From an uncultured Acidimicrobiales bacterium (GTDB lineage: Bacteria; Actinomycetota; Acidimicrobiia; Acidimicrobiales; SZUA-35), in contig CAVZHQ010000001.1 of NCBI GenBank assembly GCA_963775125.1, positions 79,209 to 143,208 on the forward strand: a stretch of DNA of 64,000 nt, read 5' to 3'. Position 1 is the stretch's first letter. Each line of letters starts with the position of its first letter. The notes below the pieces were generated by a model, which saw only the letters and a list, made by a program, of their open reading frames with translations, was not told where the DNA came from and made no database searches. A program made the position numbers and the translations under genes. Below, piece by piece: positions 962 through 52,099 of the stretch.

Positions 962-3225
962 ACATTCTGTTGTTGGGCTCGGGCGGCCGCGAGCACGCCA
1001 TCGCGGTGGCGCTGCTGCGTGAACCCGATCGGCGGCTGTTCGTCGCTCCGGGCAACGCGGGAACTGCGGCGCACAACGTCGACCTGGATCTCGACGACCA
1101 TCAGGACATCCTCAACTTCTGCGAAGCCGAGCGCATCGACCTGGTGATCATCGGTCCCGAGGCCCCCCTCGTCGCCGGCCTTGCCGATGATCTGCAGGCA
1201 TCGGGCATCCCCTGCTTCGGGCCCACTGCGGCAGCGGCCCGTCTGGAAGGATCGAAGGCCTTCACCCGACAGTTCGCCAGCAGGCACGGCATTCCCGGCC
1301 CTCGATCGGCCACGTTCACCGACGTCGGCCAAGCCTTGGCCTGGCTCGACGAGGTGGGCAAGCCGGTCGTGGTCAAGGCCGACGGACTGGCATCGGGGAA
1401 AGGCGTCATCGTCCCGGCCGACCGGGTCGAGACCGAACGGGCGATCTTCGAGATGCTGTCGGGCCAGACCCTGGGAGCCGCAGGCAGCACCATCGTCCTC
1501 GAAGAACGCATGGAGGGCGAGGAGATCTCGCTCATCGGGTTCTGCGACGGCCGCACGGTCAAGGCGCTGCCTCCGGCTCAGGACCACAAGCGAGTCGGTG
1601 AGCACGACACCGGCGCCAACACCGGAGGCATGGGTGCCTTCGCTCCCGTGCCCAGTGTGAGCAACGCCCTCTGGCACGAGCTCACCGTGAGCTTTCTCCA
1701 GCGCGCGGTCGATGCCATGGCCAGCGAGGGTACGCCGTACGTAGGCATGCTGTACGCCGGACTCATGCTCACCTCCGCCGGTCCCCGGCTGGTCGAGTAC
1801 AACTGCCGGTTCGGTGATCCCGAGGCCCAGGTCTTGCTCCCGCTGCTTGCGTCCGATCTGCTCGAGGTGATCCAAGCGTGCATCGACGGTCATCTGGCCG
1901 ACGTCGACCTGCTCATCCGACCGGGCACCGCTGCGGCTGTCGTGGTTGCAGCCGAGGGCTATCCCGCCGCGCCACGGGTGGACCTCCTCGTTCCCACGGT
2001 CACGGGGACCGCTGACGCCATGGTGCTGCACGGTTCGACCAAGGTCGATCCCGCAGGCCGCGCCGTGTCGACGGGGGGCCGAGTCCTCAACGTCGTCGGC
2101 ATGGGCCAAGAGCTGGCTGCTGCCCTCGACGCTGCCTACGAGGTGGTGAACCAGATCACGATCGACGGCGCTCACCTGTTCGCCCGCTCCGACATCGGAT
2201 GGAGACACTTGCCCCGCGACCCGTACGAACAAGCCGGCGTGTCCTTGAGCGCAGGGGCGGCCACCACCGCCCGAATCGCGGCGTCGGTGAAGAGCACGCA
2301 CGATGCTCGGGTGGTCGCCGGCCTCGGAAGCTTCGGTGGCGTCTTCGACATCGCCGCGCTGGTGAAGATGGACCAACCGCTCCTGGTGGCTTCCACCGAC
2401 GGGGTGGGGACCAAGACGCTCATTGCCGAGAAGCTCGATCGTTGGGAAGGGTGCGGCGCCGACATCGTGAACCATGGGGTCAACGATGTGCTCGTGCAGG
2501 GGGCGCGGCCGCTCTTCTTCCTCGACACCGTCGCGTCCGCCACGCTGGACCCCGAGATCGTCGGCCGGGTGGTCGACGGCATGGCCGAGGCCTGCAGGAA
2601 CAACGGCGTCGTTCTCCTGGGCGGCGAGACGGCTGAGATGCCCGACGTACTGGTCGCCGGCGCCGTCGACATCTCCGGAACACTGGTCGGCGCGGTCGAA
2701 CGAGGCCGGTTGCTGCCTCGTCCTGGCATCGCGCCCGGACATGTGTTGGTCGGGTTGGCCTCTTCGGGGTTGCACACCAACGGGTACAGCCTTGCCCGCA
2801 AGGTCGTGGCCGAGCTCGACCTTCGCCAACCGCTACCCGGCGGTGACGGTGAGTCCATCGGCGACGCGCTTCTCGCGGTGCACCGAAGCTACCTGGCACC
2901 ACTGAGTGCAGCGCTCGACGCCGACCTCATCGACGGCCTGGCCCACATCACCGGAGGCGGGCTCATCGACAACCTGCCCCGCATTCTGCCCGACGGCTGC
3001 GGGGCCGCCATCGACCGCAACTCCTGGGTCGTGCCACCCCTGTTCCAATTCATCATCGCCCGCAGCGGGCTCGACCCGGTCGAGTCGCTCAATTTCCTCA
3101 ACTGCGGCATCGGCATGGTCGCGGTCGTTGCCCCCGAGAACGTCGATGCGGCCCGCGCCGCGATCCCCGAGGAAACGTGGATCATCGGACACGTGACCGA
3201 AGGCGCCGAGGTGCGCATCGGATGA
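958..3225 (+). CDS. purD-purM: fused phosphoribosylamine-glycine ligase (PurD) / AIR synthetase (PurM), 755 aa
   Basis: One open frame runs from GTG 958 to TGA 3223-3225 (in-frame part of ORF 31..3225). The N-half is PurD (ILLLGSGGREHA, GLASGKGV, tail RSDIGWR). The C-half is PurM (YEQAGVS, STDGVGTK, GGETAEMP, SSGLHTNGYSL). Only HLPRD lies between the halves and there is no stop. Confidence 0.8.
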   Translation: MNILLLGSGGREHAIAVALLREPDRRLFVAPGNAGTAAHNVDLDLDDHQDILNFCEAERIDLVIIGPEAPLVAGLADDLQASGIPCFGPTAAAARLEGSKAFTRQFASRHGIPGPRSATFTDVGQALAWLDEVGKPVVVKADGLASGKGVIVPADRVETERAIFEMLSGQTLGAAGSTIVLEERMEGEEISLIGFCDGRTVKALPPAQDHKRVGEHDTGANTGGMGAFAPVPSVSNALWHELTVSFLQRAVDAMASEGTPYVGMLYAGLMLTSAGPRLVEYNCRFGDPEAQVLLPLLASDLLEVIQACIDGHLADVDLLIRPGTAAAVVVAAEGYPAAPRVDLLVPTVTGTADAMVLHGSTKVDPAGRAVSTGGRVLNVVGMGQELAAALDAAYEVVNQITIDGAHLFARSDIGWRHLPRDPYEQAGVSLSAGAATTARIAASVKSTHDARVVAGLGSFGGVFDIAALVKMDQPLLVASTDGVGTKTLIAEKLDRWEGCGADIVNHGVNDVLVQGARPLFFLDTVASATLDPEIVGRVVDGMAEACRNNGVVLLGGETAEMPDVLVAGAVDISGTLVGAVERGRLLPRPGIAPGHVLVGLASSGLHTNGYSLARKVVAELDLRQPLPGGDGESIGDALLAVHRSYLAPLSAALDADLIDGLAHITGGGLIDNLPRILPDGCGAAIDRNSWVVPPLFQFIIARSGLDPVESLNFLNCGIGMVAVVAPENVDAARAAIPEETWIIGHVTEGAEVRIG

Positions 3226-3917
3226 TCGTCCCGCCGGCGGGTCGGGGCCGGGTGACGGTGTTGGTGTCCGGCAACGGCAGCAACCTGCAAGCCCTCATCG
3301 ACGCGGTGGCCGCCGGAACCCTCGATGCTTCGCTGGTCAGCGTCGTATCCAACCGCCCCGACGCGTTCGGACTGGTCCGAGCCCGTGAGAGCGGCATCCC
3401 GACGACGGTCGTCACGGTCGATGGCGACGACCGGTGCACCTACGATCGGCGTCTCGCCGAGGTCGTCGGCCTGACGGAGCCGGACATCGTCGTGCTGGCG
3501 GGCTGGATGCGCATCCTCACCATGGAGTTCCTCGGCCGCTTCCGCGTCGTCAACCTCCACCCGGCCAAGCCCGGCGCGTTCCCGGGAACGCACGCCATCG
3601 AACGGGCATTTGCCGCTTGGATGGCCGGCGAGATCGACGAATCCGGCGTGATGGTCCACTGGGTCCCCGACGAGGGCGTCGACTCGGGGCCTGTCATCGA
3701 GTCGACTGCGGTTCCCTTCGAGCCCGGCGACAGCCTGGAGGCCTTCGAGGCCCGAATGCACGGCGCCGAACACCGCCTTCTCGTGTCCGCCATCGGTCGC
3801 GCACTCGACACCGTCGCTCACCGGCCGAACACCCTCTGGCCGAACACGCTCTGGCCGAACACCCTCTGGCCTAACCTTTCATCATCCATCACGCCCGAGG
3901 AGACCGGTCTCGCATGA
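3222..3917 (+). CDS. purN: phosphoribosylglycinamide formyltransferase with C-terminal PNTLW x3 tail
   Basis: ATG 3222 overlaps the purD-purM stop (ATGA). Motifs VLVSGNGSNLQALID, LAGWMRIL, NLHPA. The stop overlaps the guaB ATG (ATGA 3914-3917). Confidence 0.85.
   Translation: MIVPPAGRGRVTVLVSGNGSNLQALIDAVAAGTLDASLVSVVSNRPDAFGLVRARESGIPTTVVTVDGDDRCTYDRRLAEVVGLTEPDIVVLAGWMRILTMEFLGRFRVVNLHPAKPGAFPGTHAIERAFAAWMAGEIDESGVMVHWVPDEGVDSGPVIESTAVPFEPGDSLEAFEARMHGAEHRLLVSAIGRALDTVAHRPNTLWPNTLWPNTLWPNLSSSITPEETGLA
3825..3875. repeat. 15-bp tandem repeat CCGAACACCCTCTGG x3 plus a partial copy, in frame in the purN 3' end
   Basis: Read directly. Units at 3825, 3840 and 3855, with one substitution in unit 2. 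Confidence 0.95.
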
Positions 3918-5416
3918 CTGACCAAGACCAGCTACATCCCAACCGGCCCAATCCGAATCATGACCTGTTCGGTCACCACGAGGCCCTGACGTTCGACGAT
4001 GTGCTGGTCGTTCCGGGTTGGAGCGAGGTCCTGCCCACCCAGGTCGACACCACCACCGAGATCGCGGGCCTCGTGCTACGGACACCGTTGCTCTCGGCGG
4101 CCATGGACACCGTCACCGAGGCGCCGTTGGCCATCGCCCTCGCTCGGGAAGGAGGGGTCGGTGTCCTCCACCGGAACCTCAGCATCGAGGATCAGGTCGA
4201 CAACGTCGATCGGGTCAAGCGGGCGCAGTCGGGCATGATCGACCATCCGGTCAGCCTCAATCCCCGAGCAACGTTGGCCGACGCCGAGGCGATGATGGGG
4301 CGCCACAAGATCAGCGGCGTTCCCATCTGCGACGACGACGGCCGCCTGGTCGGCATCCTCACCAATCGCGATGTCCGGTTCTGTGGCGACGACGAATACG
4401 GCCGACCCGTCACCGAGTTCATGACCAGCGATGGTCTGGTGACCGCCCCGGTGGGTACCGGCCTGGATGAAGCAGTGCAGATCCTGCACAAGCATCGCAT
4501 CGAGAAACTGCCCCTGGTCGACGACGCCGGACGTCTGTGCGGCCTCATCACGGTCAAGGACATCGTCAAGCGCATCGAGAAGCCCGAATCGACCCTGGAC
4601 GAGCGCGGACGCCTGTGCGTCGGTGCGGCGGTCGGCGTGACCGATGTTGCGGAACGAACCGAAGCTCTCGTCGGGGCCGATGTCGACTTCCTTGTCATCG
4701 ACACGGCGCACGGACACACGCGAGGCGTCGTCGAAGCGGTGGCCACCATCAAGAAGGGCTGGCCCGATCTGTGCGTGGTCGCCGGCAACGTCGTCACCCG
4801 CGAGGGCGTCGAGGCGCTGGCCGAGGTGGGCGCCGATGTCATCAAGGTCGGCGTCGGTGCCGGGTCGATCTGCACCACCAGGGTCGTTGCGGGAGCGGGA
4901 ATGCCCCAGATGACCGCCATCTTCGAATGCGCGCAGGCAGCGCGGGAGATCGGCCGGCGGTACGGGCGCCATCTGCCGATCATCGCCGACGGCGGTGTGG
5001 TCACTTCTGGCGACATCGTCAAGGCCTTCGTCGGTGGGGCCGACGCCGTCATGGTCGGTAACCTGCTCGCCGGGGTCGACGAGGCACCGGGCGATCTCGA
5101 ACTTGTCGACGGCGCCATGTGGAAGACCTACCGGGGTATGGGGTCGGCCGGAGCCATGCGTGGCCGTGCAGCCGACCGTTACGGAACCGGGCAGGGCGGT
5201 CACAAGCATGTGGCCGAAGGAGTCGAAGCCCGGGTCCGCTACGCCGGGCCGCTGGCCGAGCTGGTGTCCCAGCTCATCGGCGGTCTTCGGTCGGGCATGG
5301 GATATGCCGGTGCTGCCAACTTGTCCGACCTCCAGAACCGCACCCGACTGGTCCGGATCACCGGTGCCGGGCTCCGCGAGAGCCACCCCCACGACGTCGA
5401 CGTCACCCGAGACTGA
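3914..5416 (+). CDS. guaB: IMP dehydrogenase (with CBS pair)
   Basis: ORF 3914..5416, 500 aa. Motifs ALTFDDVLVVPG, CBS region ISGVPI..ILTNRDV, catalytic GVGAGSICTTR, MGSxxAM. Confidence 0.93.
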   Translation: MTDQDQLHPNRPNPNHDLFGHHEALTFDDVLVVPGWSEVLPTQVDTTTEIAGLVLRTPLLSAAMDTVTEAPLAIALAREGGVGVLHRNLSIEDQVDNVDRVKRAQSGMIDHPVSLNPRATLADAEAMMGRHKISGVPICDDDGRLVGILTNRDVRFCGDDEYGRPVTEFMTSDGLVTAPVGTGLDEAVQILHKHRIEKLPLVDDAGRLCGLITVKDIVKRIEKPESTLDERGRLCVGAAVGVTDVAERTEALVGADVDFLVIDTAHGHTRGVVEAVATIKKGWPDLCVVAGNVVTREGVEALAEVGADVIKVGVGAGSICTTRVVAGAGMPQMTAIFECAQAAREIGRRYGRHLPIIADGGVVTSGDIVKAFVGGADAVMVGNLLAGVDEAPGDLELVDGAMWKTYRGMGSAGAMRGRAADRYGTGQGGHKHVAEGVEARVRYAGPLAELVSQLIGGLRSGMGYAGAANLSDLQNRTRLVRITGAGLRESHPHDVDVTRD

Positions 5417-5458
5417 CGGTCACGCAGGACTGACCGTCACGCAGGACTGACCGTCACC
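5411..5458. repeat. 17-bp tandem repeat GACTGAC(G/C)GTCACGCAG x2.8 spanning the stop codons of two convergent genes
   Basis: Read directly. Contains the guaB TGA (5414-5416) and the minus-strand TGA (5439-5437). Confidence 0.9.
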
Positions 5459-8187: not shown

Positions 8188-9265
8188 GGCCAGACTCTCT
8201 CCTATTTCGCGCGGGTTCGCCAGCTTCGCAGGGTCGGCCGGTCATACTGTGGGCGTGCCTGCTCGATCGAGCGAACCTGTCGTCCTCCTGCCCGACGAAC
8301 GCGCCGCGATCCGGGCCTTCCTGCAGCGTTGCGAAGTCCGGTTGTCCACCCTGCACCGCACCGCCACCGCGTTGCTCTCCGGGGCCGGCCTGCTCGTCGT
8401 CCTCCCCATCGTCGCCAAGGACTCCATGACCGGGATCGTCCGGTCGCTCCTCATCGGTGAACGGTCCCTGTTCGATGGCCTGCTCCTGCTCGCCGTCGGG
8501 GCGGTGCTGCTCGTTCCCGGCGTTGCGTTGTGGCTGGTCTTCCGGGATCTCACCCGCTTCTACTTCCACGCCAACCATGTCGGCGACCAGAGTGACGCGA
8601 CCTTCACCTTGCGGTTCACGCTCACGTCACTTCGGTTGCCCGTCGATGAGCTCGCCGCGTCATCGGCGTCGGCCCTGGCGACCGCTCGTTCCGCCGATGG
8701 GGCGATCGAACTCCTCGTCCCAGCCAATGACGCGGCACGACGACGCATCGACCGTCAGCTTCACGTCTACGACGCCGGACGGTCGCGGGTCATGGCCACC
8801 GACGCCGATCGGGCCGAGGCGATGTTCGAACTTGCGGCAGCCCACTCGCGCTCCCTGGTCGAAGAGGTTGCCAAGGTGGAGCACGGGATGGCCCGACACA
8901 CCCTCCGGCTCCAGGGCATCGTGCTGCGCTACGTGAAGGCGTTGCTGGCGTTGTTGGTCACCGCAGCCGCGGTCTACGCCGGGGACGCTGCCGTGGCCGG
9001 CGCGCTCGCCACCGGCGACGGCGTGCATGCCATCGAGGCCATCTGGCTCTCGGCGATCCTATTGCTCTGGGCCCCGGCCGTCGTGCTGGCCGTCAAGTCA
9101 CCCGTTCGGTGGATCGAGCAACTGGCTCGGTCGGAGGCCTCATCGTCCACCGCGGTTGCCAACGATCCGGAGTTCACCTTCGTCGAGCGAGTGACCTTGC
9201 GCATCGTCGGCGTGGCCGGAGTCGCCTCGGCCGCAGCGCTTGCTGCCGCCATCGTTCAGTACTGA
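8186..9265 (+). CDS. hypothetical multi-pass membrane protein
   Basis: In-frame part of ORF 8132..9265 beyond the divergent gene start. Several hydrophobic segments. No family recognised and the start is uncertain (GTG ~8251 also possible). Confidence 0.45.
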   Translation: MARLSPISRGFASFAGSAGHTVGVPARSSEPVVLLPDERAAIRAFLQRCEVRLSTLHRTATALLSGAGLLVVLPIVAKDSMTGIVRSLLIGERSLFDGLLLLAVGAVLLVPGVALWLVFRDLTRFYFHANHVGDQSDATFTLRFTLTSLRLPVDELAASSASALATARSADGAIELLVPANDAARRRIDRQLHVYDAGRSRVMATDADRAEAMFELAAAHSRSLVEEVAKVEHGMARHTLRLQGIVLRYVKALLALLVTAAAVYAGDAAVAGALATGDGVHAIEAIWLSAILLLWAPAVVLAVKSPVRWIEQLARSEASSSTAVANDPEFTFVERVTLRIVGVAGVASAAALAAAIVQY

Positions 9266-9330
9266 CCATAACCGACTGAGCTGTCCGATTTCCGCTAGCG
9301 AGAGCGGGACTCGTCGGTCAGACTGCGAGC

Positions 9331-10908
9331 ATGAACCGTTCGTCGCCAACCGCTCCCAACAACATCGAGGCGTGGGCCCGGGCTGTCGAGAGTCGCGACA
9401 GCCGGTTCGACGGATGGGTGATTGTCGGCGTGACCTCCACGGGCATCTACTGCCGGCCGAGCTGTCCGACGCCAGTGCGACCCAAACGAGCGAACATGCG
9501 ATTCTTCGCCACTCCGGCCTCGGCGCAGATGGAAGGCTTTCGGGCCTGCAAGCGGTGCCTCCCCGACGCCGCTCCCGGATCACCCGAGTGGAACCGTCGT
9601 GATGATCTGGTCGGACGTGCGATTCGGGCCATCGATGATGGGCTGATCGATCGGGTGGGCGTGAACGGGCTCGCTGGGCATCTGTCGGTGAGCGCCCGTC
9701 ACCTGAACCGCCTGCTGGCCGCCGAGGTCGGGGCCACGCCGGTGGCCCTCGCCCGAGCCCGCAGAGCCCGGGCCGCCCGCGTGTTGATCGAGACGACCGA
9801 CCTGCCGTTCTCCGAGGTGGCCTTCGCCGCCGGATTCGACAGCATCCGCCAGTTCAACGACACCGTGAGCGAGGTGTTCGCCTGCACACCGACGACGTTG
9901 CGGGAAAAGGCGACCCGCGCCGCGCCCAATCGGTTCCGGCATCGCCAAGCGGTCCCCGACTCGATCCCGACCGGGGCCATCTCGTTGCGGTTGCCGTTCC
10001 GCGTTCCCTACAACCGTGATCAGGTGCTGGCCTGGCTGGGATCGCACGCCATCCCCGGTGTCGAGGCCCGCAGCGGTCGGAGGTACGCCAGAAGCCTGCG
10101 CCTGCCTCACGGCCCGGCCGTCGCGCTCCTCGACTTCGAACCGGAGACGCACATCGAAGCGTCGATCTGGTTGTCGTCGCTTGCCGACCTGCAGACGGCG
10201 CTGCATCGATGTCGGAGGATGCTCGACCTCGATGCCGATCCCGGAGTCGTCGACCAGGCGCTCGCTGCCGACCCTCTCCTGGCCTCCAGTGTCTCGGCCC
10301 ATCCAGGCACCCGCTCGCCTGCAGACGTCGACGGGTTCGACGCGCTGCTGCGGGCCATCATCCATCAGCAGGTCTCGGTTGCCAGCGCCGTCGGCGTGCT
10401 CGCTCGACTGACTGCCGTCCACGGTCACCGCATCGAGCAGGCCTTCTCGTTCGCCGCGCTCGGGGACGGCCTCGCCGAGGTCACCACGGTCATTCCCGGC
10501 CCTGAGGTCTGGGCTGCGTTGGATCCGAACGACCTCGGGCTGCCGGCCTCTCGGGCAAGAACCGTCGTCGCTGCGGCTCTCGCTGTGGCTGACGGGACCG
10601 TCGACCTGTCACCAGGTGCCGACCGCGAACTGGCTCGACAGCGGCTTCGCACGATCAAGGGCATCGGACCCTGGACCGCGGCCATCACCTCGTTGCGAGG
10701 CCTGTCCGATCCCGATGTCTTCGTGCCGGGTGACCTCGCCCTCCAGCGCTCGGCGGACTTCGTGGCCCGATCGAATCGACTCGAGGACACCCTCTCGCTT
10801 GACGAACGATCGCTTCGCTGGAGGCCATGGAGGTCCTACGCCATGCATCACCTGTGGCGTTCGTATCAACCGAAATCCCGCGCCGACAAGACTGGAACGA
10901 CACGATGA
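9331..10908 (+). CDS. alkA: Ada (Zn methylphosphotriester sensor + AraC HTH) fused to AlkA DNA-3-methyladenine glycosylase
   Basis: ORF 9331..10908. Ada Cys4 motif CRPSC..CKRC, an AraC-type HTH, and a C-terminal HhH-GPD (IKGIGPWTA..D). Confidence 0.85.
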   Translation: MNRSSPTAPNNIEAWARAVESRDSRFDGWVIVGVTSTGIYCRPSCPTPVRPKRANMRFFATPASAQMEGFRACKRCLPDAAPGSPEWNRRDDLVGRAIRAIDDGLIDRVGVNGLAGHLSVSARHLNRLLAAEVGATPVALARARRARAARVLIETTDLPFSEVAFAAGFDSIRQFNDTVSEVFACTPTTLREKATRAAPNRFRHRQAVPDSIPTGAISLRLPFRVPYNRDQVLAWLGSHAIPGVEARSGRRYARSLRLPHGPAVALLDFEPETHIEASIWLSSLADLQTALHRCRRMLDLDADPGVVDQALAADPLLASSVSAHPGTRSPADVDGFDALLRAIIHQQVSVASAVGVLARLTAVHGHRIEQAFSFAALGDGLAEVTTVIPGPEVWAALDPNDLGLPASRARTVVAAALAVADGTVDLSPGADRELARQRLRTIKGIGPWTAAITSLRGLSDPDVFVPGDLALQRSADFVARSNRLEDTLSLDERSLRWRPWRSYAMHHLWRSYQPKSRADKTGTTR

Positions 10909-10964
10909 CCTGGAACGACACGATGACCGGGAACGACACGATGACCGGGAACGACACGATGACC
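10893..10964. repeat. 18-bp tandem repeat (T/G)GGAACGACACGATGACC x4 covering the alkA stop / ogt start junction
   Basis: Read directly. Units at 10893, 10911, 10929 and 10947. Each carries ATGA. Confidence 0.95.
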
Positions 10965-11495
10965 CACGAACCACGAACACTCCTCCGCCACCGATTCGAG
11001 GTACCTGAAGGGCTCGACTGCCCGGTTGATCACCTGCTGTTGGTTGCCAGTCCCTCCGGCCTGCGGGCCGTGCTGTGGCCCAATGACCTCGATGGCTCCC
11101 GAGCCAAGCATCGTGTGCCCCTCGAGGCCACGACCGAAGGTGTCAACGAAGCAATCGAACGGGCGGAGGATCAGTTGGGTGAGTACTTCTCGGGTCGACG
11201 AACCGAGTTCGACCTGCCGCTCGACCCTGTCGGAACAGCGTTTCAGAAGGAGGTCTGGTTCGGCCTTGCCCGCATTCCGTTCGGGCAGACGACGTCGTAC
11301 GGCAAGCAGGCCGTCGAGTTGGGGCGCCCCACCGCAGTTCGTGCGGTGGCAGCGGCCAATGGCCGGAACCCGATCTCGATCGTCCTGCCGTGCCACCGCA
11401 TCATCGGTGCCGACGGCTCGTTGACCGGATTCGCGGCAGGCCTCGAAGCCAAGGCGTGGTTGCTGAAACACGAGGGCGCGGCCCTGTTCAGCTGA
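10905..11495 (+). CDS. ogt: methylated-DNA-protein-cysteine methyltransferase; four alternative in-frame ATGs (10905, 10923, 10941, 10959)
   Basis: In-frame part of ORF 10827..11495. Active site PCHRII and TTSYG motif. ATG 10905 overlaps the alkA TGA. Confidence 0.85.
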   Translation: MTWNDTMTGNDTMTGNDTMTHEPRTLLRHRFEVPEGLDCPVDHLLLVASPSGLRAVLWPNDLDGSRAKHRVPLEATTEGVNEAIERAEDQLGEYFSGRRTEFDLPLDPVGTAFQKEVWFGLARIPFGQTTSYGKQAVELGRPTAVRAVAAANGRNPISIVLPCHRIIGADGSLTGFAAGLEAKAWLLKHEGAALFS

Positions 11496-11523
11496 CGGCC
11501 GCAGGGTTGGTTGCAATCGGGCG

Positions 11524-12012
11524 TCAGGTGTCGAACGCCGGGCACGCAGTCGCGGTGTCCGCCACGGCCTCGAAGAAGCCCTCGTAAGCGATCGGGTCAG
11601 CTCCGACGACGACCGCCCCGATCGTTCGGTTGCTGAAGGTGTCGGACACGTGCTCCGCGATGCACGACGCGTGGTCGGACGCATAGACGTCGCCGAGCAC
11701 CTCGATGACCACCCGCTCGGTGTCGGCGCATGAGGTGGCGGCCTGACCGATCACGGCTAGCTCCTCGTCGCCGAAGACGACGTCGGGGAGCGGCACCGAC
11801 GGATCCATCTCGATGGCGTTCACGACCGCGTTGGCGACGCATTCGGCGGCATCGGCGTCGGCCAGCGGGCTCGCTTCGACCGCGAGGAGCTGGGGAAGCA
11901 ATGCGTCGGCGGCGCGGTCGTCGCCGGCACATCCGGCGAGCACGGCAGCGACACAGACCGCTCGGCCGAGGCCGACGCCGTTCACGATGTGGCCGATCAG
12001 TTCACGCCACAA
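11524..12012 (-). CDS. putative lipoprotein, acidic, Cys-containing
   Basis: ORF 11524..12012 has a lipobox-like AVLAGC after a hydrophobic N-terminus. No family recognised. Confidence 0.5.
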   Translation of the reverse strand: MWRELIGHIVNGVGLGRAVCVAAVLAGCAGDDRAADALLPQLLAVEASPLADADAAECVANAVVNAIEMDPSVPLPDVVFGDEELAVIGQAATSCADTERVVIEVLGDVYASDHASCIAEHVSDTFSNRTIGAVVVGADPIAYEGFFEAVADTATACPAFDT

Positions 12013-12584
12013 CTGGAGGTAGCGGTGATCATGTTCTCGAGGAACGCACTGTCGGTTGTCGGGTCGACGCCACCGAGCCCGGCGGCCATGGCCTCCTCGG
12101 CGAAGTCCTGGCCGAGCTTGTCCATCATGCAGCCTGCGGCTTCCTCGCCGAACTGGGTGGCCAGCTGCGTGGTCATGAAGGCGATCATGTCCGTGCAGTC
12201 GCTGAACGTGCCGACAACCATGTCGATTTCCTCATCGGTGAGGTCGAGCGTGTCGAGTCCACCGGTGGCGGTGCTCGCGGCCTTCAGCTCGGCCAGGCGG
12301 TCGGCGCCGATTCCGTCGACGATGCTCGATGCCGCACAGGTGGCCTCGTCCTCGTCGGCGAACGGAGAGTCGGCGTCGCCGGTGAGGTCGGCGACGATCT
12401 CGTCGACCAGGGCCGAGTCTTCAGAGCCGGCCCCGCCGACGTCTGCGCCTCCGTCGGAAGAACTGTCGGAGGACGATCCGGCCGCATCATCGGAGCCACT
12501 CGAGCTGCAGGCCGAGAACAACAGGGTCGACGCGGCAAGAATGGCAAGCAACGGCAAGGCGAACGGGGTAGCGGGGCGGCGCAT
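11997..12584 (-). CDS. putative lipoprotein, acidic, Ser/Asp-rich linker
   Basis: ORF 11997..12611. The likely start is MRRPATPFALPLLAILAASTLLFSAC (signal peptide plus lipobox). Overlaps the downstream lipoprotein gene by 16 nt. Confidence 0.5.
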   Translation of the reverse strand: MRRPATPFALPLLAILAASTLLFSACSSSGSDDAAGSSSDSSSDGGADVGGAGSEDSALVDEIVADLTGDADSPFADEDEATCAASSIVDGIGADRLAELKAASTATGGLDTLDLTDEEIDMVVGTFSDCTDMIAFMTTQLATQFGEEAAGCMMDKLGQDFAEEAMAAGLGGVDPTTDSAFLENMITATSSCGVN

Positions 12585-18562: not shown

Positions 18563-18609
18563 ACCCCTCCGATGGTAGTAGCGACCCAAGCAGACGGCCG
18601 TTGGCTTTT

Positions 18610-18677
18610 CGCAACCGCTCCAAACTCGCAACCGCTCCAAACTCGCAACCGCTCCAAACTCGCAACCGCTCCAAACT
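18610..18677. repeat. 17-bp tandem repeat CGCAACCGCTCCAAACT x4
   Basis: Read directly. It abuts the hairpin element, and the unit shares CGCAACCG with the hairpin 5' arm. Confidence 0.95.
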
Positions 18678-18731
18678 CGCAACCGTGTGCAGTGCGCACC
18701 TCTGGGAGGGGCAGAACTGCACACGGTTGCG
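18678..18731. repeat. dispersed hairpin element, copy 1: 16-bp perfect stem CGCAACCGTGTGCAGT / ACTGCACACGGTTGCG, loop containing CCTCTGGGAGGGG
   Basis: Read directly. A near-identical copy lies at 43876-43936. Confidence 0.85.
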
Positions 18732-18736
18732 ATTGT

Positions 18737-18800
18737 TCATGCCGGGTCGGCGGCGTCCGCCGCCTCGATCATGCCGGGTCGGCGGCGTCCGCCGCCTCGA
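18737..18800. repeat. 32-bp tandem duplication x2 of the serB 3' end including its stop codon
   Basis: GCCGGGTCGGCGGCGTCCGCCGCCTCGATCAT occurs twice (18741 and 18773). Both minus-strand ORFs end ..IEAADAADPA. Confidence 0.9.
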
Positions 18801-19965
18801 TGTCCTCCCGGCGGACGCCGAGAATGAAGAGGATGGCGTCGAGGTAGGGGACGTTCACCGAGGTGTCCGCCGCCAATCTGACCACCGCCTTGGCGTTGAA
18901 GGCGATGCCGAGCCCGGCCGCGCTCAACATGTCGAGATCGTTGGCACCGTCGCCGACGGCCACGGTCTGATCGAGCGAGATTCCTTCGTACTCCGCGATC
19001 CTCGACATGATGCGGGCCTTGGCCTCGCGGTCGACGACCTCGCCGATCACGCGGCCCGTGAGCCGACCCTCGACGATTTCGAGGGTGTTGGCGTAGGCGT
19101 GCCGCAACCCGAGTTCGGCGGCCAGGTACTCGGTCACGTTGGTGAAACCGCCGGAGACGAGTGCGACGTGGTAGCCCAACCGTTTGAGGGTTCGGACGAA
19201 CGTGCGCGCCCCGGGAGTGAACTGGACGTTGGCTTTCGCTCGGTCGATGGCTGCCTCCTCGAGCCCGGCGAGCAGGCTCACCCGGGCGTCGAGCGACGAT
19301 CGAAAGTCGAGTTCGCCGGCCATTGCCCGTTCGGTGATGGCAGCGACCGCGTCGAGCTGGCCGGCCTCGGCTGCCAACAGGTCGATGATCTCGTTCTGGA
19401 TCAGTGTCGAGTCGACGTCGAGCACGATCAGTCGGGCGGCTCGCCGACCGAGCCCCTCGCGTTGGACGGCGACATCGCAGACGAGTTCGTGGGCGAGGTC
19501 GAGCAGCGCGACGCGAAGCTCCTCGATGTCCGGCCCTGAGACCAGCAGCTCGTAGGCCCACACGGGGTACTTCGCCAGACGGATGATGCGTTCGATGTTG
19601 CCGTGGTGGGCGGCGACGACGCTGGCGACGGCGCCGAACTCCTGCGGATCGACCTGCCTGCCGATGACGGTGACCACCAGCCCCAGCTGACGGGTGATGC
19701 CATCCGCAGCCTCCACGACATCGAAATCGACCTCGACCTTCTGCTGCCAGGCAAAGAGCAGCAGCTCCTTGATGAGATCCTTTCCCCGAGGCACGGTGAT
19801 GACGAGGCTGAGGTTCAGGCGCCCTCGGATGATGATCTGCTCGACGTCGTGCATGCCGGCGCCGGTGGTGGCCAGCAGGTCCATGAGGCGAGCGGTGATG
19901 CCAGGACGATCGGGCCCCGAGATCGTGACCAGTATGTTCTCGGCGGTTGAAGGCACGGCCCTCAC
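18769..19965 (-). CDS. serB: phosphoserine phosphatase with two N-terminal ACT domains
   Basis: ORF 18769..19965. HAD motifs LDVDSTLI and GDGANDL. ACT-like N-terminus (ILVTISGPDRPGI). Confidence 0.9.
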   Translation of the reverse strand: MRAVPSTAENILVTISGPDRPGITARLMDLLATTGAGMHDVEQIIIRGRLNLSLVITVPRGKDLIKELLLFAWQQKVEVDFDVVEAADGITRQLGLVVTVIGRQVDPQEFGAVASVVAAHHGNIERIIRLAKYPVWAYELLVSGPDIEELRVALLDLAHELVCDVAVQREGLGRRAARLIVLDVDSTLIQNEIIDLLAAEAGQLDAVAAITERAMAGELDFRSSLDARVSLLAGLEEAAIDRAKANVQFTPGARTFVRTLKRLGYHVALVSGGFTNVTEYLAAELGLRHAYANTLEIVEGRLTGRVIGEVVDREAKARIMSRIAEYEGISLDQTVAVGDGANDLDMLSAAGLGIAFNAKAVVRLAADTSVNVPYLDAILFILGVRREDIEAADAADPA

Positions 19966-28401: not shown

Positions 28402-29465
28402 CTTTCCCCGAGAGCAGCGGCGACGGACTGGGCGACTCTGGACTGGGCGACTCTGGACTGGGCGACTCTGGACTGAAGGTGTCGAAGCTCACCGTTCGCT
28501 ACGGCGAGACGTTGGCGCTCGACGGCGTCGATCTGCACGTACCCGCCGGTTCGATCGTCGCCGTCATCGGCCCGAGCGGTTGCGGCAAGAGCACCCTGCT
28601 GCGAGCGGTCGCCGGGATCGAGAAGCCGACTGCCGGGTCGGTCGAGCTCAACCGACGCGTGCTGGATCGGGTGCCAACGCACCTGCGTGGCGTCGGGCTC
28701 ATGTTCCAGGAGCACGCACTGTTCCCCCATCTCACCGTGGGGGAGAACGTGGGCTTCGGCCTCCAGTACGCCGGGCTGGCCGATCACCTGCGCGTGGATC
28801 GGGTACGCGAGTTGCTCGCACTCGTCGGTCTGGAGGGAACCGCCGACCGTGCGATCGATGAGCTGTCCGGCGGCGAAGCTCAGCGGGTTGCATTGGCGCG
28901 CGCCCTCGCTCCGTCGCCGGGACTCTTGATGCTGGACGAGCCACTCGGTTCTCTGGATCGGATGTTGCGGGAGCAGTTGGTGGGGGAACTGGGCCGAGTC
29001 ATTCGCCGGCAGGGCATGACGGCGGTGCACGTCACCCACGACCAGGCCGAAGCCTTTGCGTTGGCCGATGAGGTCGTCGTGCTCCGGGAGGGCCGCGTGC
29101 AGCAGGTCGGGACACCCGAGGAACTCTGGTGCCGGCCCGTGTCGCCGTTCGTCGCCGACTTCCTCGGGCATCCCAATCTCTGGGCCCGAGGCGACGAGAC
29201 GGTGCTCGTGCCCGTTGGCGGTCTGTGCCCTGCAACCCCCGGCCCGACCGGCGTGGCCCGCCGCGGGACGGTCGAGGCCTCGACGTTTCGGGAGGGGCAC
29301 TACCGGGTGACGGCCACGAGCACCGACGATCACGCAGGAGAGTCGTTGGTGTTCGATTCTGCAACCGCGCTGTCGGCCGGGTCCGACGTCGAACTGGTCA
29401 TCGACACCGCTCAGCTGTGGACCATGCCGACCGAGCGGCCGTTGGGCCCGACTCAGACGTCGTAA
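28398..29465 (+). CDS. thiQ: thiamine ABC transporter ATP-binding protein with N-terminal GLGDS x3 repeat
   Basis: ORF 28398..29465. The ATG overlaps the thiP stop (ATGA). Walker A GPSGCGKST, signature LSGGEAQR, Walker B LLMLDEP. Confidence 0.85.
   Translation: MTFPESSGDGLGDSGLGDSGLGDSGLKVSKLTVRYGETLALDGVDLHVPAGSIVAVIGPSGCGKSTLLRAVAGIEKPTAGSVELNRRVLDRVPTHLRGVGLMFQEHALFPHLTVGENVGFGLQYAGLADHLRVDRVRELLALVGLEGTADRAIDELSGGEAQRVALARALAPSPGLLMLDEPLGSLDRMLREQLVGELGRVIRRQGMTAVHVTHDQAEAFALADEVVVLREGRVQQVGTPEELWCRPVSPFVADFLGHPNLWARGDETVLVPVGGLCPATPGPTGVARRGTVEASTFREGHYRVTATSTDDHAGESLVFDSATALSAGSDVELVIDTAQLWTMPTERPLGPTQTS
28425..28475. repeat. 15-bp tandem repeat GGACTGGGCGACTCT x3 plus a partial copy, in frame in the thiQ 5' end
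   Basis: Read directly. Perfect copies at 28425, 28440 and 28455. Confidence 0.95.
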
Positions 29466-30371: not shown

Positions 30372-31103
30372 GTGGCCTCCTATCCTTCTCGACGATCTGC
30401 GTTTGAACCGACAGCTTTTCCTCCGACAGCCTTTCATCCAACAGCATTTCATCCAACAGCAGAGCACGAACGATTCCAGTGGACCGGGCGGTGGTTTACG
30501 CGGCTGACTCGGACGCTGGCACACCTGGAGCTTCCCGAGGTGTTGCCGCTGCCCGACAACCGGCCGGTCATTCTCGCAGCCAATCACCGCAGTCTGCTCG
30601 ACCTCGCGATCGCGATGGCGGTCTTCAGCCGGTTCGGCCTTTCGAGCCGGATCCAGATCAGGGCCGATCTCATGGAACGAGGGCCTGGGGCCAAGCTGCT
30701 GCACGGCATCGGAGCGATCCCCACGTCGACCAAGCTTCGAGAGTCCTCGGAGCGGGCATCGATCGAGGCCGTTGCTGCCGGTCACCTTCTGTCGCTGATG
30801 CCCGAGGGGCGCCTCTGCAAACCCGAGGAGTGGGTGCGTGGCGTGGGGCCTGGTCGGCCGGGGGTGTCCCGAATCGCGTTGGCCACCGAGGCCGTCGTCG
30901 TGCCGATCGGGTTCAGCGGGACCGAACGGGTCTGGCCACGCGGCCGGCCGCCGAGGTTCCAGGTACCTCGGCCCCAGATCCGCGTCGGCGTCGGCCCTCC
31001 CGTCGAGCTGGCCAGCACGAGTCACGCCGACAACAGTCGGCAGGTGATGGAAGCCATCGCTGATGTGCTGGTCGCGCTCGAGGACCCGCACGCGGTGGCC
31101 TGA
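30372..31103 (+). CDS. lysophospholipid (1-acyl-glycerol-3-phosphate type) acyltransferase with N-terminal PTAF-repeat
   Basis: ORF 30372..31103. HX4D motif NHRSLLD and PEGR motif. The start is uncertain. Confidence 0.72.
   Translation: MASYPSRRSAFEPTAFPPTAFHPTAFHPTAEHERFQWTGRWFTRLTRTLAHLELPEVLPLPDNRPVILAANHRSLLDLAIAMAVFSRFGLSSRIQIRADLMERGPGAKLLHGIGAIPTSTKLRESSERASIEAVAAGHLLSLMPEGRLCKPEEWVRGVGPGRPGVSRIALATEAVVVPIGFSGTERVWPRGRPPRFQVPRPQIRVGVGPPVELASTSHADNSRQVMEAIADVLVALEDPHAVA
30408..30467. repeat. degenerate 15-bp tandem repeat CC(G/A)ACAGC(N)TTTCAT x4
   Basis: Read directly. Units at 30408, 30423, 30438 and 30453. Confidence 0.8.
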
Positions 31104-47114: not shown

Positions 47115-47184
47115 GGTGGACTCACGTTAGAGACTCGCGGGACCAAGACGTGGAATGAGGTGCGCCGATGAGTGACGAGGCAAC

Positions 47185-47226
47185 GGTGAAGAGGCAGCGG
47201 TGAAGAGGCAGCGGTGAAAAGGCAAG
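47185..47226. repeat. 14-bp tandem repeat GGTGAAGAGGCAGC x3 (third copy degenerate)
   Basis: Read directly. It overlaps the predicted GTG start at 47214. Confidence 0.85.
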
Positions 47227-47738: not shown

Positions 47739-47765
47739 CGTGCTCACGTGCCCCCGCCTTCCTCC

Positions 47766-47825
47766 TCAGACCAGCCATCCTCCGACCAGCCGGCGTCAGA
47801 CCAGCGATCCTCAGCCCAGCCATCG
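47766..47825. repeat. degenerate 15-bp tandem repeat TCAGACCAGCCATCC x4
   Basis: Read directly. It encodes SDQPS-type repeats only if ATG/GTG 47748 is used. Confidence 0.75.
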
Positions 47826-51711: not shown

Positions 51712-52046
51712 GCGTCAAGGTCGAACTGCACGAGTTGCCCGAGGCCGTTGGGCTGGTGGGACCAACCGTCTTCCTGCTCACGACCAACGCCGATGCTTCA
51801 CCGCACCCGGCCCACGTCAGTGTGACGTTCGCCGATGGGGTGTTCACCCTCTCGGCCGGGCGGCGGAGCTGTGCCAACAGCACCGACCGTCCCGCCATCA
51901 CGTTGTTGTGGCCGGCGAGCGAAGCCGATGCCATGAACCTCATCGTCGATGGGGTCGCTGAGACCGTTGTGACCGATGCCGGCGTGGTGACGGTGGCTCC
52001 CACCAGCGCCATGTGGCACCGGCAACCGGATCACCCGCCGCACTGA
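51708..52046 (+). CDS. small hypothetical protein, possibly PNPOx-like split-barrel
   Basis: ORF 51708..52046. The ATG overlaps the MMPL stop (ATGA). The family call is weak. Confidence 0.45.
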   Translation: MSVKVELHELPEAVGLVGPTVFLLTTNADASPHPAHVSVTFADGVFTLSAGRRSCANSTDRPAITLLWPASEADAMNLIVDGVAETVVTDAGVVTVAPTSAMWHRQPDHPPH

Positions 52047-52078
52047 TCACCCGCCATCACTGATCACCCGTCAACCCT
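52029..52078. repeat. ~16-17-bp tandem repeat GATCACCCGCC(N)CACT x3 including the stop codon region
   Basis: Read directly. CACTGA recurs at 52041 and 52058. Confidence 0.75.
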
Positions 52079-52099
52079 GAGCCGAGTTCTTCGCACCCC

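Follow-up and report, generated by a model that had tools for sequence, protein, structure and literature searches.

STRUCTURE OF THE ALKA-OGT JUNCTION

The stretch of DNA analysed here, called the window, comprises 64 000 nt (C1:79209-143208) of the genome of an uncultured Acidimicrobiales bacterium (G000; 7 contigs, 67% G+C), and it contains an ada-alkA fusion gene followed by ogt, with a tandem array of four 18-bp units lying across the junction of the two genes. The first gene encodes an Ada Zn-binding domain, an AraC-type helix-turn-helix (HTH), the AlkA N-terminal domain and a glycosylase part (Pfam Ada_Zn_binding, HTH_18 and AlkA_N). The second encodes both O6-methylguanine methyltransferase domains (Pfam Methyltransf_1N and DNA_binding_1) and the active-site motif PCHR, whose residues P162, C163, H164 and R165 do not vary across 40 aligned sequences (A2). 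By its Pfam domains, with ada-alkA followed by a separate Ogt carrying the PCHR active site, the pair is an Ada-AlkA/Ogt adaptive-response operon. A comparable pair is Rv1317c/Rv1316c of Mycobacterium tuberculosis, an actinobacterial adaptive-response operon of ada-alkA plus ogt in which the same Ada Zn-binding/AraC HTH/AlkA fusion precedes a separate ogt; the gene content is the same, and only the junction repeat is unusual in the window.

Positions 10893-10964 are occupied by four head-to-tail units, (T/G)GGAACGACACGATGACC, which vary at the first base alone (T, T, G, G; Table 1). Tandem Repeats Finder (TRF) called the array as 10894-10964, with a period of 18, 3.9 copies, 98% matches and a score of 135, and adding base 10893 to this span gives exactly four units. 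The window contains the 17-mer GGAACGACACGATGACC four times, where dinucleotide shuffles predict 0.05, and the rest of the 5.04-Mb genome lacks it, its sole locus being C1:90102-90172; when up to two mismatches were allowed, the whole genome yielded scattered single matches to the unit that look like chance, and no arrays. Each unit contains a weak Shine-Dalgarno (SD)-like element (GGAA or GGGAA), the tetranucleotide ATGA and two Ogt codons. Ada-AlkA ends with KTGTTR at the TGA of unit 1, where the ogt-frame ATG at 10905 overlaps this stop at the -4 spacing, and further ogt-frame ATGs recur at 10923, 10941 and 10959, so that the reading is MTWNDT-MTGNDT-MTGNDT-MTHEPRTLL. The ogt frame is stop-free from 10905 to its stop at 11493-11495. 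The sequence, TRF and open reading frames (ORFs) thus bore out the anatomy originally described, namely the unit, the alkA stop within unit 1, the series of in-frame ATGs and the gain of six residues per unit. An AlkA-Ogt fusion made by readthrough was rejected, because TGA is present in the alkA frame in every unit. Just 3' of the array lies a minor 7-bp repeat, CCACGAA, which is largely present in relatives as well (CACGAACCACAAAC) and hence is not part of the new amplification.

Table 1. Positions of the junction features and of other tandem arrays mentioned in the text
Feature	Location	Strand	Basis or description
ada-alkA fusion gene, 525 aa	9331..10908	+	ORF; Pfam PF02805, PF12833, PF06029; tail ...SYQPKSRADKTGTTR followed by stop
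18-bp x 4 array, (T/G)GGAACGACACGATGACC	units 10893-10910, 10911-10928, 10929-10946, 10947-10964	+	TRF; alignment A1
Retained ancestral ATGA stop-start overlap	10905..10908	+	Ogt ATG 10905-10907, AlkA TGA 10906-10908
ogt, longest coupled form, 196 aa	10905..11495	+	ATG overlapping alkA stop; repeat encodes residues 1-18, MTWNDTMTGNDTMTGNDT
ogt, ancestral-length form, 178 aa	10959..11495	+	MTHEPRTLL...; length and start as in 88-92% identical relatives
Minor repeat CCACGAA, 7 bp x 2.1	10964..10978	+	TRF; just 3' of array
Other arrays in the window	3823-3875, 5411-5457, 18609-18685, 18737-18801, 28425-28475, 30411-30461, 47172-47225, 47763-47824, 52029-52080		
Junction arrays of G000 with period not a multiple of 3	C5:294561-294600, C5:494196-494232, C5:270016-270047, C5:108746-108797		Outside window
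Array in G003, 12 bp x 3			TTDE repeats, AlkA tail
Array in G040, 18 bp x 4.7			Ogt N-terminus
Array in L032, 12 bp x 3.7			AlkA-tail/Ogt-N-terminus linker
Array in L050 (Acidimicrobiales MAG Co_metawrap_1930), 13 bp x 3.1	2403-2452		ACATGACCGAACG; AlkA tail
Array in L055 (uncultured Ilumatobacter MAG FRAM18_bin014), 12 bp x 7.6	2403-2492		GCACCAACACCG; (APTP)7 linker
Array in L197, 15 bp x 2.4			Directly 3' of ATGA
MAG, metagenome-assembled genome.

ORIGIN OF THE ARRAY

We recovered the alkA-ogt junction from relatives of the window genome (Acidimicrobiales/Ilumatobacteraceae) at graded Ogt identity to the window Ogt, namely 92% for L112 (GCA_038256755) and L113, 90% for L114 and L115, 89% for L196, 88% for L200, 81% for G005 and 72% for G001. 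Each of these carries a single junction copy with the ATGA overlap, an overlap that is also kept in L197. When aligned with four close relatives (alignment A1), the window carries a clean 54-bp insertion corresponding to three extra units, and the single-copy junction of the relatives, for example ACTGGAACAAGGCCATGACC followed by CACGAACC in L114, is homologous to the window unit plus its flanks. A single-copy ATGA junction is shared by the five nearest relatives found (Ogt 81-92% identical), which makes the array a derived, lineage-specific and recent 54-bp insertion. Amplification of the stop-start junction, as originally proposed, is therefore supported by an ATGA junction that is homologous to the unit and present once in these five relatives. 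The first bases of the units (T, T, G, G) further imply at least one duplication and one substitution, and then further expansion.

Copy number thus differs between species, one versus four. The closest Ogt among 5.8 billion proteins is 92% identical, and an exact look-up of the window AlkA and of three Ogt start variants returned no record. Metagenomes were scanned twice, with the last unit plus right flank and with a degenerate 23-mer of the left flank that the 88-100% clade conserves; both scans gave 0 matches, and no conspecific sequence was found in searchable collections.

TRANSLATION OF OGT AND THE REPEAT-ENCODED TAIL

SD pairing is weak throughout the array, at -3.3 to -5.4 kcal/mol for the four ATGs compared with a genome median of -5.8, and SD strength in the single-copy relatives is similar. 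This weakness fits coupling of ogt to alkA by termination-reinitiation, which is predicted from the sequence. NTGA is the commonest coupling motif, and a reinitiating ribosome is reported to begin at whichever start lies nearest the stop (PMC12548453); from the overlap geometry and this review, ATG 10905 is thus most likely the main ogt start, producing the 196-aa Ogt. The junction resembles other NTGA-coupled pairs in its ATGA overlap, its weak SD and the conservation of the overlap in ada-alkA/ogt relatives, but differs from them in that the overlap module is present four times, with extra in-frame starts 18, 36 and 54 nt 3' of the stop.

It had been proposed that copy number would change both the N-terminal length of Ogt and the distance between the alkA stop and the ogt start. 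The first effect stands at six residues per unit, whereas the geometry of the first start is unaffected, because ATGA is present in each unit and unit 1 therefore retains the ancestral -4 overlap at any copy number. Likewise, distance from the alkA stop grows only for the last, ancestral ATG, and the spacing of the first ATG is fixed. Phase-variable ON/OFF switching does not follow from the array, as the period of 18 is a multiple of 3 and both genes are intact at any copy number. An AlphaFold2 model of the 196-aa Ogt had a mean predicted local distance difference test score (pLDDT) of 90, with a core above 90; residues 1-20 were modelled as coil with pLDDT of 53-56, and the folded core began from about residue 26. 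In this model the repeat is predicted to encode a floppy, disordered tail on Ogt of at most 18 residues.

Within 9000-12200 we found no sigma-70-like promoter or terminator, and the region held no Rfam family, the lone match being at chance level (E=0.38) and elsewhere. The sequence GGAAC resembles by eye the -35 element of extracytoplasmic function (ECF) sigma factors, but that strand lacks a matching -10 (CGTT) after it. A GGAGG located 6 nt before an ogt-frame ATG at 10827, inside alkA (window 10827-10850), is strongly SD-like (-9.3 kcal/mol). A start of ogt at this ATG was rejected, because the GGAGG forms codons of the conserved AlkA motif WRPWRS and the ATG is absent in L112. ATG 10827 is probably incidental but might lead gene callers to annotate Ogt as a 222-aa protein.

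TANDEM ARRAYS ACROSS THE GENOME AND THE GENUS

Taking arrays as non-overlapping TRF calls with a score of at least 50, we counted 673 arrays in G000, or 134/Mb, versus 9/Mb and no strong arrays in a trinucleotide-shuffled genome. A period of 15 is the mode (215 arrays), followed by 18, 21, 16 and 30, and the window itself holds some ten arrays besides the alkA-ogt one (14-18 bp, 3-4.5 copies; Table 1). The 15-bp units are mutually no more alike than shuffled units and are thus independent local duplications, not a repeat family.

These counts bear on the suggestion that the junction follows the logic of mycobacterial interspersed repetitive units (MIRUs), and on the rival reading of a MIRU-like mobile intercistronic element inserted at the ogt start codon. 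Like MIRUs as described (PMC12548453), the array lies between cistrons, is tandem, and has in each unit an internal frame coupled by overlapping stop and start, by which downstream expression would be preserved; the analogy in stop-start coupling geometry therefore holds. Membership of the class fails, as MIRUs are dispersed homologous units of 40-100 bp at dozens of loci and may be mobile, whereas the alkA-ogt unit is 18 bp long, unique in the genome, born in situ and found in an Acidimicrobiia host. That the unit occurs at no other genome locus, that its positions correspond one by one to those of the homologous single-copy junction in the relatives, and that the 15-bp units of other arrays are mutually unrelated leave insertion of such an element effectively refuted.

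Gene positions for the following comparisons were taken from a simple codon-bias caller (4622 genes, 84% coding). Arrays internal to coding sequence number 246 compared with 493 expected, those in non-coding DNA 224 compared with 87 expected, and those over stop codons 113 compared with 31.1 ± 5.0 expected. The stop lies within the first unit in 99 of 111 array-stop overlaps, which leaves the protein unchanged. Periods inside genes are nearly all multiples of 3, while 14-17 are common at gene edges, where arrays form a smooth peak of period 14-18; the sharp 15-bp peak of the intergenic class may partly reflect missed genes, since the caller under-calls genes. Array coverage is 5.5% at +20 to +39 after stops, 0.8% at -10 to -1 of starts and 0.7% genome-wide, and its peak spans 10-40 nt after stops. 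Arrays cover 8.3% of stops where convergent genes lie 21-60 nt apart, 2.6-3.9% of those at loose junctions (2.6% for loose co-directional ones) and 0.5-0.6% of those at tight junctions. The rate of stop-covering arrays thus tracks the permissiveness of the site, and the pattern is that expected from a high rate of short duplication filtered by purifying selection. Prokaryotic tandem repeats have been reported, in general terms, to be enriched 3' of stop codons and 5' of starts (PMC12418385); we found no literature specific to tandem repeats in Acidimicrobiia or to 15-bp duplications.

Density was compared among related genomes. In G000 the strong arrays amount to 22.8/Mb. Two short-read MAGs of the same genus have 148 arrays/Mb (37.5/Mb strong; stop-covering 14 compared with 2.1 expected; G002) and 131 arrays/Mb (31.7/Mb strong; stop-covering 5 compared with 1.5; G005), another genus of the family has 110 arrays/Mb (7.5/Mb strong; stop-covering 4 compared with 2.5; G013), and another family has 22 arrays/Mb (2.5/Mb strong; G030). 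Array density is thus a trait of the genus, and the stop-codon excess is clear in one of the two short-read MAGs (G002). Strong arrays are far fewer in the other genus of the family, and the other family of the order is far poorer overall. These figures also weigh on the reading that the array arose as an artefact of assembly or consensus calling in an error-prone long-read MAG whose true genome has one copy. An assembly in only 7 contigs suits this reading, but array density is equal in the short-read MAGs of the genus, G002 showing the stop-codon excess too, and an artefact would ignore reading frames, whereas in-gene periods are nearly all multiples of 3 and gene interiors are avoided. Moreover, a substitution separates units 1-2 from units 3-4. 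Known long-read errors are indels of 1-2 bases and not 18-bp copy gains, which the array would require, and we regard an artefact as very improbable.

ARRAYS AT OTHER OPERON JUNCTIONS

G000 has twelve stop-covering arrays at co-directional junctions whose gap is at most 40 nt, and 8 of them, the alkA-ogt array included, duplicate the stop-start module; all 8 keep an unbroken path to the downstream ORF. By our own gene calls the genome has 453 co-directional gene pairs at -4 spacing. Where the period is a multiple of 3, the result is a ladder of in-frame starts, as in the 18-bp array at alkA-ogt and in 15-bp arrays at C7:1197680, C1:164595 and C7:1103099. Relay mini-ORFs (MKRSSQR, MIEAQS and MSVVG, each followed by a stop) in which TGA overlaps the next ATG arise at ATGA junctions from periods of 20, 17 and 14 bp, and a 16-bp array on a TGAcATG junction produces three MGWL mini-ORFs, each likewise closed by a stop. 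Relay mini-ORFs could pass translational coupling along the array. For the ~6 arrays of ATGA type, the probability of avoiding the chain-breaking phase is roughly 0.09, a sample too small for significance. The unbroken chains match the functional prediction of the MIRU comparison, and purifying selection alone would leave the same survivors.

One may read the alkA-ogt array as a translational tuning element, in which four modules of ribosome-binding site and ATG offer ribosomes, terminating or free, four chances at starting ogt and copy number sets the Ogt:AlkA ratio or the isoforms made; slippage would then let this ratio evolve in the manner of a rheostat. As a suicide protein, Ogt is consumed stoichiometrically, so its dosage matters, and in each unit GGAA or GGGAA stands 7-8 nt before the in-frame ATG. 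In addition, arrays are rare at tight junctions (0.6%), so that a survivor may be selected, and the chain of starts or relay mini-ORFs is unbroken in 8/8 junction arrays. However, SD pairing is weak in every unit, one copy suffices in the five nearest relatives found, and the size and copy number of the array match those of genome-wide arrays without conceivable shared function. The unbroken chain, moreover, is also what purifying selection alone leaves, and its probability of roughly 0.09 comes from the ~6 arrays mentioned above. We therefore consider tuning unlikely, though worth weighing.

A broader view is that the array is one visible product of a genus-specific mutational process with an unusually high output of 14-18-bp tandem duplications, preferentially at or just after stops, for instance when forks stall or restart at the ends of transcription or translation. 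At operon junctions, survival would be limited to arrays with an unbroken chain of coupled starts, either in-frame start ladders or relay mini-ORFs with TGA overlapping the next ATG. Arrays of this kind would then serve as spacers or ladders able to evolve, and through them the stoichiometry of coupled genes would be tuned, in this case that of the suicide enzyme Ogt relative to AlkA. We hold this combined proposal to be rather improbable.

LENGTH VARIATION OF THE SAME LINKER IN OTHER LINEAGES

Independent arrays at the AlkA tail or the Ogt N-terminus were found in at least six other lineages (Table 1), and among 40 homologues the N-terminal tail of Ogt varies in length from 0 to about 60 residues. 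The AlkA-tail/Ogt-N-terminus region is tolerant of length change. In L050 every unit of the array moves the reading frame, and AlkA terminates in the third unit, at the TGA of the third ATGA; with one or two copies the frame would continue into ogt. In L055, AlkA and Ogt apparently lie in one continuous open frame, and a natural Ada-AlkA-Ogt triple fusion joined by the repeat is possible.

Two further observations concern neighbouring positions. In L112, the closest relative found, an array at 797-881 (18 bp x 4.8, CAGTACTGAGCTGTCAGG) repeats the last two codons and the stop (QY-stop) of the gene upstream of ada-alkA; the window counterpart of this gene (8249-9265, ending IVQY-stop) has no array. 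In an Ogt homologue of 200 aa (P0035), the loop that follows the WPND motif is enlarged by an internal insertion, GLKKGLEKGLKKG, which resembles a 15-bp tandem repeat within the region of the folded N-terminal domain.

DISCUSSION

We think it likely that the alkA-ogt array is a near-neutral tandem array generated by slippage, presumably a variable number tandem repeat (VNTR), at a permissive site. The array would then be no special device but one of hundreds in a repeat-prone genus. In this account replication slippage, the assumed mechanism, would have amplified 18 bp containing the ATGA, the weak ribosome-binding element and the first two ogt codons, and the array would persist owing to its almost complete lack of cost. 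Ada-AlkA would still stop at the first TGA, leaving its protein unchanged as the sequence confirms, and a ribosome terminating on alkA could restart at once through the -4 overlap of unit 1, whose geometry is visible although use of the start is argued from it. Because the period is a multiple of 3 and no ogt-frame stop occurs across the array, a start at any of the four ATGs would produce an intact Ogt with 0, 6, 12 or 18 extra N-terminal residues. The genus-wide tendency to tandem duplications of 12-21 bp would supply such arrays, and selection would leave them mainly at and just after stops.

The array has the properties of a bacterial VNTR or minisatellite arising by slipped-strand mispairing, with near-identical head-to-tail units derived from local sequence (98% matches, and homology to the single-copy junction of relatives), restriction to one lineage, a period that is a multiple of 3 where translated, and a location in a length-tolerant region. 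It is unlike the usual case in that the unit spans a -4 overlap, so the array lies 3' of one stop and forms the 5' coding end of the next gene, and its variability between strains is presumed.

Several points weigh against the near-neutral explanation. Arrays are 4-14 times rarer at tight operon junctions than at other stops, so that most such duplications are purged, and a survivor could hence be favoured and not merely tolerated. Four ribosome-binding and start modules in a row could also raise or buffer initiation of Ogt. The choice of ATG is deduced from sequence, the copy-number contrast is one between species, with neutrality and variability presumed, and the counts of array classes are approximate, as they depend on a crude, home-made gene caller (84% coding).

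For annotation, the abundance of short arrays in the genus is a warning that starts and C-terminal tails beside them are easily miscalled. The alkA-ogt array by itself is of little weight, as both repair genes are intact and its likeliest effect is a floppy Ogt tail of 6-18 residues. It is nevertheless a clean natural case in which duplication of a stop-start overlap module has broken neither gene. The wider pattern is of more use: with about 130 short arrays/Mb, concentrated on stop codons, the genus would offer many candidate VNTR markers for strain typing in metagenomes.

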